From an uncultured Bacilli bacterium (GTDB taxonomy: Bacteria; Bacillota_I; Bacilli_A; RF39; UBA660), in NCBI GenBank assembly GCA_910587065.1, contig CAJUMA010000001.1, forward strand, positions 82,221-146,220: DNA of 64,000 nucleotides, given 5' to 3'. The position numbers and the translations under genes were made by a program. Below, piece after piece: positions 35,101 to 35,660 of the stretch. How positions within the stretch are numbered: the stretch's first letter is position 1; every line of letters starts with the position of its first letter. The notes beneath the pieces are model-generated. The model was given only the letters and a program-made list of their open reading frames with translations, did not search any database and was not told where the DNA came from.

Positions 35101-35660
35101 TCTTATCGTATATGTTTCACGTGAAACATATACGATAAGATTATTTAATAGTAAGCTAAATTTATTTTCAATGTTTCACGTGGAACATGAAACAAAGTTT
35201 TATTTTCGTACTATTTTTTGACTATTAAGAATCAATAATCAAGCACAAATTCGTTTATATATCAGTCTCAATGTTTCACGTGAAACATCTTTAGACAATT
35301 TTATTAAAAAAGTAAATATTTTTATCAAAATTATACAATTAGATATTATAATTTGTTACTTATTCTAATTAATGTTCCACGTGGAACATTAATTATATAT
35401 ATTTTGGTTTAACATATAAACCTAAGTTTAATGATGTTTTAATATAAACAATATTATCAAAGGTTTCACGTGAAACATAATAATAATAATAATAATAATA
35501 ATAATAATAAAGTTAAGACATAATGTTCCACGTGGAACATTATGCGAATAACGAAGCTTGTTAATTAATATAATAATGTTTCACGTGAAACATTATTATA
35601 TATTTTTAAAGCTATTAGTTATATATGTAACATTATAGTTTCACGTGGAACATAGATTAT
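35101..35660. repeat. parS: tandem array of eight parS (ParB/Spo0J-binding) palindromes
   Basis: 16-bp cores at 35113-35128 TGTTTCACGTGAAACA, 35173-35188 TGTTTCACGTGGAACA, 35273-35288 TGTTTCACGTGAAACA, 35384-35399 TGTTCCACGTGGAACA, 35462-35477 GGTTTCACGTGAAACA, 35524-35539 TGTTCCACGTGGAACA, 35577-35592 TGTTTCACGTGAAACA, 35637-35652 AGTTTCACGTGGAACA. All match the Firmicute parS consensus TGTTNCACGTGAAACA. Site 1 lies in a perfect 40-bp palindrome (35101-35140). Several others have extended palindromic flanks (CATAATGTTCCACGTGGAACATTATG; ATAATAATGTTTCACGTGAAACATTATTAT). Confidence 0.85.
35479..35511. repeat. (TAA)11 trinucleotide microsatellite inside the parS array
   Basis: Uninterrupted taataataa... 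run between parS5 and parS6. Confidence 0.9.

Follow-up and report, generated by a model that had tools for sequence, protein, structure and literature searches.

A dense array of eight parS sites between gyrA and the small SRP RNA gene, a probable chromosomal centromere of an uncultured low-GC Bacilli bacterium

The DNA analysed here is a 64,000-nucleotide stretch (the window) of contig CAJUMA010000001.1 from an uncultured Bacilli bacterium, and the element in question is an array of eight parS sites, the palindromes bound by partition proteins of the ParB type. The array lies in the spacer between gyrA and the gene of the small signal recognition particle (SRP) RNA, within a run of minus-strand genes in the order dnaA, dnaN, a 152-aa ComK-like open reading frame (ORF), recF, gyrB, gyrA, the array, the small SRP RNA gene (ffs), a tadA-like gene, dnaX, ybaB and recR. 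Because the terminator-like hairpin that ends gyrA and the promoter-like site of the SRP RNA gene bound it on its two sides, the array fills a spacer without predicted transcription. The genome is low in G+C (25–32%), and its GC skew changes sign at ~44–46 kb. From this switch and from the divergent dnaA and rnpA-yidC-mnmE gene sets, oriC was placed at ~44.5–45.4 kb; matches to the DnaA box TTATCCACA were scattered, with no clear cluster by which the origin could be pinned. The distance from the array to dnaA is 8.8 kb. The original prediction, made from the sequence, had located the array between gyrA and the SRP RNA/tadA genes at about 9 kb from oriC; this holds for the flanking genes, and the position of dnaA and the skew flip agree on ~9 kb.

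All eight parS 16-mers match TGTTNCACGTGAAACA with zero or one mismatch on the better strand, as had been predicted, and the 14-bp core GTTNCACGTGNAAC is exact in every one (array span 35113–35652; Table 1). By chance, 0.07 parS matches would be expected in the window, and none of 100 shuffles reached the observed count. As 16-bp palindromes the sites fit TGTTNCACGTGNAACA. The scan for further copies that had been proposed was run on the window and 10 kb past each end, and no ninth parS was found there even at two mismatches; the array thus holds the sole sites in ~84 kb around oriC, with none dispersed around the origin in that stretch. The start-to-start spacings are 59, 100, 101, 89, 62, 53 and 60 bp, so that the predicted minimum of 53 bp stands and the maximum is 101 bp rather than 111 bp.

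Four of the eight sites lie within longer perfect palindromes. That of 40 bp around site 1 was found as described, and those around sites 4, 6 and 7, originally given as 24–30 bp, are present with lengths of 30, 26 and 34 bp, respectively. With a 34% chance of a complementary flanking base pair in the spacer, the probability of these flank extensions arising by chance is 2e-6 to 5e-3. The flanks differ from site to site, so that the symmetry is kept and not a particular flank sequence. A terminator role for the 40-bp palindrome was considered and rejected, as it is terminator-like on the plus strand alone, where no transcription enters; the hairpin that ends gyrA is a different element. The predicted (TAA)11 microsatellite was likewise found between sites 5 and 6, where it abuts site 5. 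Tandem Repeats Finder (TRF) reported this tract alone in the array, with no constant period. The spacers between the sites are mutually unrelated AT-rich DNA that can no longer be aligned. Because the spacers have diverged this far while every core has stayed intact, selection probably acts on each site. A candidate old duplication of ~157 bp (35030–35188 against 35186–35345) was a weak alignment in AT-rich sequence and was discarded as unconvincing.

Table 1. Coordinates of the array, its neighbours and the related features (window positions unless a locus is named)
Feature	Position	Strand	Remarks
parS site 1	35113–35128	.	TGTTTCACGTGAAACA, perfect palindrome
parS site 2	35172–35187	.	TGTTTCACGTGGAACA
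parS site 3	35272–35287	.	TGTTTCACGTGAAACA
parS site 4	35373–35388	.	TGTTCCACGTGGAACA
parS site 5	35462–35477	.	GGTTTCACGTGAAACA; exact core, outer base deviates
parS site 6	35524–35539	.	TGTTCCACGTGGAACA
parS site 7	35577–35592	.	TGTTTCACGTGAAACA
parS site 8	35637–35652	.	AGTTTCACGTGGAACA; exact core, outer base deviates; missing in strain locus L007
40-bp perfect palindrome around site 1	35101–35140	.	P ~2e-6 for the 12-bp flank extension
30-bp perfect palindrome around site 4	35366–35395	.	
26-bp perfect palindrome around site 6	35519–35544	.	
34-bp perfect palindrome around site 7	35568–35601	.	
(TAA)11 microsatellite	35477–35510	.	abuts site 5, between sites 5 and 6
Terminator-like hairpin and T-run ending gyrA	35731–35760	-	upstream boundary of the spacer
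Promoter-like site directly upstream of the SRP RNA gene	34925–34952	-	TTTAAA, 16-nt spacer, TG-TATAAT; downstream boundary of the spacer
gyrA	35742–38207	-	
Small SRP RNA gene (ffs)	34833–34929	-	RF00169, 54.6 bits
tadA-like tRNA adenosine deaminase gene	34399–34824	-	TadA is the top NCBIfam match (100.7 bits; curated cut-off, 150)
dnaA	43138–44496	-	
Exact Noc-binding site ATTTCCCGGGAAAT inside dnaX	33290–33303	.	linker region, encodes ISREI; conserved in four strains
Gene of the 378-aa Noc-like CTPase-fold protein	51062–52198	+	sole ParB-family gene in the window; directly after rsmG
152-aa ComK-like ORF	41323–41781	-	between dnaN and recF
Two serine-recombinase genes (482 and 500 aa)	8736–11634	-	adjoining
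2318-aa ORF	11835–18791	-	beside the serine-recombinase genes
Composite parS and Noc-binding-site arrays	L019 1–440; L074 3560–4050; L178 13–320; L244 1028–3380; ~120 metagenome loci L135–L254		Noc-binding site = TATTTCCCGGGAAATA

Variation of the array within the species was followed in five assemblies, in which the spacer is ~99% identical. The TAA tract has 7, 11, 14, 16 or 20 copies, and the distance between sites 5 and 6 thereby ranges from 50 to 89 bp, which bears out the suggestion that slippage of the microsatellite could alter the spacing. Exactly one unit has been lost at locus L006 (59 bp, from between the site 1 and site 2 cores) and at locus L007 (60 bp between sites 7 and 8), and the four sister strains keep seven to eight parS sites. 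Because TAA counts vary and exact units are lost, the array changes by slippage as well as by recombination between its parS copies. Neither its spacing nor its helical phase is constrained, as would be expected of independent loading sites more than of a phased nucleoprotein structure.

A scan of one-genome-per-species data was performed with a pattern of three parS 30–60 bp apart (within ~150 bp). Among the matches listed were nine loci in low-GC metagenome-assembled genomes (MAGs) labelled 'Bacilli' or 'Bacillales', whose GyrA is 60–65% identical to that of the window and whose arrays share the gyrA-ffs-tadA-dnaX neighbourhood with it. Altogether, ~130 loci of a large clade of low-GC uncultured 'Bacilli' from gut and rumen carry parS at the gyrA-dnaX locus, with GyrA 52–73% identical to the window protein. 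The sites in these relatives occur on both sides of ffs, in the interval from tadA to dnaX, and even in frame inside dnaX. Their repeat units are tandem, with periods of 44–45, 55 or 62–65 bp, and fixed-period units occur in some of them (L052, L057 and L074); nine parS are packed into 500 bp at L052. The parS sites are conserved in related genomes despite this turnover, and the comparison indicates that the position of the array is old and its repeat units are young.

Two further observations of this kind deserve description. In two relatives, an in-frame triple parS was found in the variable linker of dnaX, at L127 (991–1135, dnaX at 505–2235 on the minus strand) and L027 (7874–7981), where the sites encode repeated VSRET, VPRET or VSRGT, 15–23 codons apart, and constitute a coding-region parS array. 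A contig of 2.3 kb and 22% G+C that was binned as 'uncultured Muribaculaceae' (L022, CAZJQA010000106.1) resembles the window closely in carrying an eight-site parS array together with the SRP RNA gene, tadA and dnaX; the binning is almost certainly an error, the source being a low-GC Bacilli genome.

The triple-parS pattern was present at at least 120 loci from many phyla. The taxa among the matches listed were Myxococcota (Myxococcus, Anaeromyxobacter), Actinomycetota (Streptomyces and others), Bacteroidota (Flavobacterium and others), Acidobacteriota, Planctomycetota, Verrucomicrobiota, Burkholderiales, spirochaetes (Treponema), Clostridia, Lachnospiraceae, Bacilli and two genomes of the candidate phyla radiation (CPR). 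Among the 120 matches listed, 41 had at least five sites within 600 bp and 13 had at least seven, and most of these loci adjoin parB, rsmG or mnmG. Myxococcus xanthus has 22 parS in 3 kb, which are bound by ParB as a large complex (PMC3899335), and Caulobacter, Pseudomonas, Corynebacterium and Streptomyces also have parS clusters that extend over several kb. The original prediction had set the array against the scattered single sites of Bacillus subtilis and most Firmicutes, and this holds for the well-studied Firmicutes, whose parS are few and dispersed (PMC7022226). The implication that a tight array is exceptional was overstated, in view of the M. xanthus cluster and the at least 120 triple-parS loci across phyla; dense chromosomal parS arrays are commonly assumed to be rare, an assumption that the survey corrects. 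Full-text literature searches returned no description of natural chromosomal parS arrays at 50–100 bp spacing or at gyrA-ffs.

In relatives of the window species, parS is often paired with a second palindrome, the Noc-binding site (NBS). A metagenome scan for parS followed by an NBS within 8–16 bp yielded at least 120 loci. Among the 120 listed, G+C is 19–31% in all but two, and wherever a flanking gene could be recognised, the locus lay almost without exception at gyrA-tadA-dnaX, with GyrA 52–73% identical to that of the window. In the modules, parS and NBS are separated by ~10–12 bp (25–28 bp from start to start), and the distribution of gaps peaks at 12 bp. The paired modules are repeated up to eight times at gyrA-ffs-tadA-dnaX and recur every 62–72 bp in some genomes and every 225–257 bp in others. 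At L019 and L074, for example, each unit of 62–64 bp consists of one parS, 12 bp and one exact NBS, and seven to eight units stand between gyrA and the SRP RNA gene. Sites of either kind cluster within ~1 kb of the middle of the array. At more than 2 kb from the arrays, 515 kb of clade sequence contained no parS and seven NBS (about one per 74 kb). The NBS are ~200-fold concentrated at the centromere in relatives, an enrichment near the centre that is partly built in, as the loci used for it and for the half-site counts were chosen for at least one parS-NBS pair. About 800 palindromes were classified in these clade loci, 492 as pure parS and 300 as pure NBS, and no mixed palindrome of one parS half and one NBS half was among them; the simplest reading would be that two separate homodimeric proteins bind them. 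A variant was seen at L106 (6150–6175), where GGGAAATATTTCCC beside a parS consists of two NBS half-sites in swapped (everted) order. Paired parS-NBS modules were not described in any paper returned by the full-text literature searches.

In the window species the array is free of NBS. The one NBS that it keeps, located inside dnaX at a distance of 1.8 kb, is the only one in ~104 kb of this species, and by our own estimate from base composition ~1e-4 exact copies would be expected in the window. When NBS remnants with up to five mismatches were sought in the array, the only near matches were the parS sites themselves. In L189, the closest of the relatives sampled (GyrA 73% identical), this spacer between gyrA and the SRP RNA gene holds two NBS along with five parS.

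The sole ParB-family gene in the window encodes a 378-aa Noc-like protein and is followed by a penicillin-binding-protein gene on the opposite strand. The best solved-structure matches of the protein were to Noc (7NG0/7NFU, 1e-58), ahead of Spo0J (6SDK, 4e-49). It scored 266.9 bits against TIGR04285 (Noc), below the curated cut-off of 315, and 175.7 bits against the generic ParB domain model. The residues that set specificity are R, T, A and G in Caulobacter ParB and Q, K, K and R in Noc (PMC7383237). In B. subtilis Noc they are Q158, K164, K169 and R186, and one permissive Lys is sufficient (Jalal et al., PMC7383237); the parS-specific variants of the mutational scan always had Arg at the first specificity position (173) (PMC7383237). 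In an ungapped alignment to Noc (...RLGTSQSNVANKIRLLTL...ISERHAR...), the 378-aa protein has Q, K, T and R at these positions, and none of 14 homologues of 59–100% identity departs from the Q, K and R. It thus carries NBS-type specificity residues, and exact NBS accompany it, one in dnaX of its own genome and 300 in the clade loci.

The 378-aa protein has no N-terminal amphipathic membrane-targeting helix of the Noc type. Its residue 5–6 aligns with residue 26–29 of full-length Noc, no upstream extension of its ORF is possible, and the family shares an unvarying N-terminus, MKME. At the other end it has a long, acidic region of ~170 residues with the conserved segments SLFFNNLEN...LNFGFNPF and EEFNFDxxYQFIIRI. 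The family is large and comprises proteins of 360–400 aa from uncultured Bacilli and Erysipelotrichales; the 378-aa protein goes under the generic name ParB/RepB/Spo0J protein in NCBI's pipeline for prokaryotic genome annotation (PGAP). Judged by its residues, the 378-aa protein is most probably a binder of NBS and not of parS.

A second ParB-family gene and a ParA gene were sought in the window and in 120 metagenome loci, by tblastn with the 378-aa protein, and also in 10 kb beyond each end of the window and in the rsmG-noc neighbourhoods of two relatives, and neither was found; the origin flanks searched were ~40 kb on one side of oriC and 30 kb on the other. Because the sites split strictly into parS and NBS, a homodimer dedicated to parS and distinct from the Noc-like protein is to be expected, and this parS-binding ParB would be encoded elsewhere in the genome.

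Several other features of the window were recorded. Exact protein matches to it came from mouse-gut metagenomes and from MAGs labelled 'Bacilli bacterium', and a homologue 74% identical to its ParB-family protein carries the label 'Erysipelotrichales bacterium'. The sporulation genes spoIIR, spoIID, spoVG and yabP are present. Firmicutes usually carry a small S4-like yaaA/rlbA gene between dnaN and recF; the 152-aa ORF found at this place matches ComK (PF06338) and also occurs in relative L134. Two large serine-recombinase genes adjoin each other beside a 2318-aa ORF, and the gene content of strains L131 and L132 differs just past this region, a pattern suggestive of an element that is integrated or excisable and perhaps linked to sporulation.

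Taken together, the data lead us to conclude, with a probability of about 0.72, that the array, as a set of clustered ParB-loading sites, is the chromosomal centromere of a low-GC mouse-gut bacterium related to Erysipelotrichales. Its function would most likely be that of a high-capacity ParB loading and nucleation site. In line with the established biochemistry of ParB, one dimer would bind each palindrome of 16–18 bp; cytidine triphosphate (CTP) would close the dimer into a clamp, which would slide into the flanking gyrBA and ffs-tadA-dnaX DNA and leave the site open to another dimer. With eight independent sites within 540 bp, the loading rate and the local concentration of ParB would be multiplied, and one large partition or condensation complex could be nucleated ~9 kb from oriC. 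With B. subtilis ParB and CTP in magnetic tweezers, condensation needed at least seven parS, and the force rose with parS number (PMC8299390). Because no ParA was found near the origin, the output would likely be ParB-dependent loading of SMC (structural maintenance of chromosomes) complexes and organisation of the origin rather than ParA-driven transport, by analogy with Streptococcus pneumoniae and Staphylococcus aureus, in which ParA-less ParB-parS systems load SMC (PMC7022226; bioRxiv 10.64898/2026.03.06.710092). The data show the sites, their uniqueness around the origin, their conservation, the changes in their copy number and the clade-wide constancy of their position; we infer that a canonical ParB from outside the window binds the array and loads SMC, and that ParA is absent genome-wide. 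The original prediction had pictured a very large loading zone for ParB and SMC served by a cognate Spo0J/ParB. A ParB loading site remains the most reasonable function; the binding of ParB and the loading of SMC are put forward here as probable steps, and the cognate protein that had been assumed is not supplied by the window, where the sole ParB-family gene is of the Noc type.

Some of the results weigh against a ParB-loading centromere. Neither the window nor the flanking 10 kb nor ~130 clade loci yielded a canonical ParB gene (Arg at Caulobacter position 173 and a small residue at 201), and the sole ParB-family protein of the window is of the Noc/NBS type (Q, K, T, R), while ParB needs R at the first position. 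In addition, the binding of ParB does not by itself account for the long palindromes at four sites. They may plausibly have been extended outward by a neutral process, template switching at the hairpin-prone core.

On a rival reading, the array would be bound by the Noc-like protein itself, which would be the only ParB-family protein of the cell and, through a dual specificity for parS and NBS, a single CTPase clamp that served both as centromere binder and as Noc. Its gene is indeed the sole ParB-family gene within ~40 kb and 30 kb of oriC in the window and in two relatives, and parS and NBS are physically paired 25–28 bp apart at the gyrA-dnaX locus of relatives. Moreover, a usually conserved DNA-contacting Lys (K171 of Caulobacter) is Thr, Ile or Met in the Noc-like family, which points to non-standard DNA contacts, and dual-specificity variants are known from the mutational scan of Jalal et al. 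(PMC7383237). The family, however, invariably has Gln at 173 and Arg at 201, whereas the parS-specific variants of that scan invariably had Arg at 173. A dual-specificity dimer, with one half-site per monomer, should also tolerate mixed half-site palindromes, and their absence among ~800 sites disfavours a single protein of this kind, which we consider unlikely.

Other explanations leave the centromere aside. If the palindromes were operators, bound by a transcription factor or by ParB as a repressor, they would control ffs-tadA-dnaX or read-through from gyrBA and not segregation. Site 1 lies ~160 bp upstream of the promoter-like site of ffs, two essential operons are separated by the spacer that the array occupies, and ParB of Pseudomonas aeruginosa represses the genes adjacent to the intergenic sites parS3 and parS4 (PMC7022226). 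Eight operators over 540 bp, most of them remote from promoters, would nevertheless be an unusual layout; promoter-like matches in the array region (19) are not clearly above the number in shuffled sequence (12.4 ± 3.6); the sites of relatives have no fixed relation to a promoter, some being in frame inside dnaX; and the motif equals the universal parS at every core position. Control of transcription is the least probable of the explanations weighed here. The array could also be a neutral or selfish expansion of one ancestral parS by slippage, unequal recombination and palindrome-driven template switching, in which the extra copies have no function. The exact one-unit deletions and the unstable microsatellite agree with this, as do the near-identical tandem units of relatives, which are typical of recent amplification, and in P. 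aeruginosa one of the four origin-proximal parS is reported to be enough for segregation (PMC4368675). Against it, the perfection of all eight 14-bp cores amid diverged spacers speaks for purifying selection on each copy, multi-copy arrays have persisted at the locus across the clade down to a GyrA identity of 52%, and ParB-dependent condensation in vitro rises with parS number. We therefore regard a functionless expansion as very unlikely, and the ParB-loading centromere is retained.

The pairing in relatives allows a tentative extension of the ParB-loading centromere, against which we would still put somewhat longer odds than in its favour. The clade centromere may be a composite platform for two ParB-family CTPase clamps, the Noc-like protein having been redeployed from genome-wide nucleoid occlusion to the centromere, and the window species may be a parS-only derivative. 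In such a history the Noc-like protein would have lost the N-terminal membrane helix and gained the conserved C-terminal region. Possible roles of the redeployed protein would be to limit or insulate the sliding of ParB, to anchor the origin, or to replace the missing ParA.

What is new here is a very dense chromosomal parS array at an unusual, conserved locus away from the par genes, in a lineage that often pairs parS with NBS; this pairing, present in the relatives and not in the window, is the most novel lead. The number and arrangement of parS set the load of ParB, and hence of SMC, at the origin, and most mechanistic work has been done in organisms with few dispersed parS or with artificial arrays. 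The lineage offers a natural eight-site array with ~75-bp spacing in a possibly ParA-less spore-former, and the strain differences in site number and spacing form an allelic series in which ParB loading and condensation can be related to parS copy number. The locus also gives evidence that a centromere can be remote from the par genes, here at gyrA-dnaX, and can keep that position through long evolutionary divergence despite turnover of its sequence. Finally, the fixed distance between parS and NBS suggests an undescribed interplay of two paralogous CTP switches.

Among known systems, plasmid centromeres were named by the original prediction as a likeness. The centromere sopC of the F plasmid consists of twelve 43-bp repeats. 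The parS of pSM19035 is reported to consist of heptad repeats (PMC9499535), and the window array resembles both in having several close sites for a centromere-binding protein within a few hundred bp. The resemblance is loose, however: the plasmid arrays are fixed-period tandem repeats beside parAB, whereas the window array is irregular, has unrelated spacers and no head-to-tail constant period (which some relatives do have), and is flanked by gyrA and ffs-tadA-dnaX, with no parA-parB operon adjacent to it or elsewhere in the window. The Noc-NBS system of Bacillus and Staphylococcus is matched by the position of the window protein after rsmG, by its NBS-type Q, K and R and by an exact NBS in the genome. 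It differs in that the window protein scores below the Noc cut-off, has no N-terminal membrane helix and carries an extra C-terminal region, and the concentration of NBS at the centromere of relatives, paired with parS, is an arrangement not described for Noc.

Among chromosomal systems, Spo0J/ParB of B. subtilis (10 parS) is likewise from a Firmicute, has the same 16-bp consensus and loads SMC (PMC7022226, PMC4536313). Its sites stand singly across a large origin domain, one of them inside spo0J, and noc, soj and spo0J stand as a trio beside rsmG, whereas the window has the Noc-like gene alone after rsmG. S. pneumoniae (4 parS) and S. aureus (5 parS over ~400 kb) share with the window the lack of ParA, near the origin in the case of the window. 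Their ParB recruits SMC and organises the origin, and S. aureus keeps Noc, so that ParB and Noc coexist there without ParA; their parS are few and dispersed and form no array. The M. xanthus cluster (22–24 sites in ~3 kb; Iniesta 2014, PMC3899335) is alike in having many consensus parS in a short origin-proximal stretch, and M. xanthus ParB shifts the 3-kb fragment that carries it as one large complex in an electrophoretic mobility shift assay (PMC3899335). That cluster lies ~4 kb upstream of an essential parAB operon, whereas the window array stands at gyrA-ffs without parA or parB nearby, and its mean spacing of ~75 bp compares with ~140 bp in M. xanthus.

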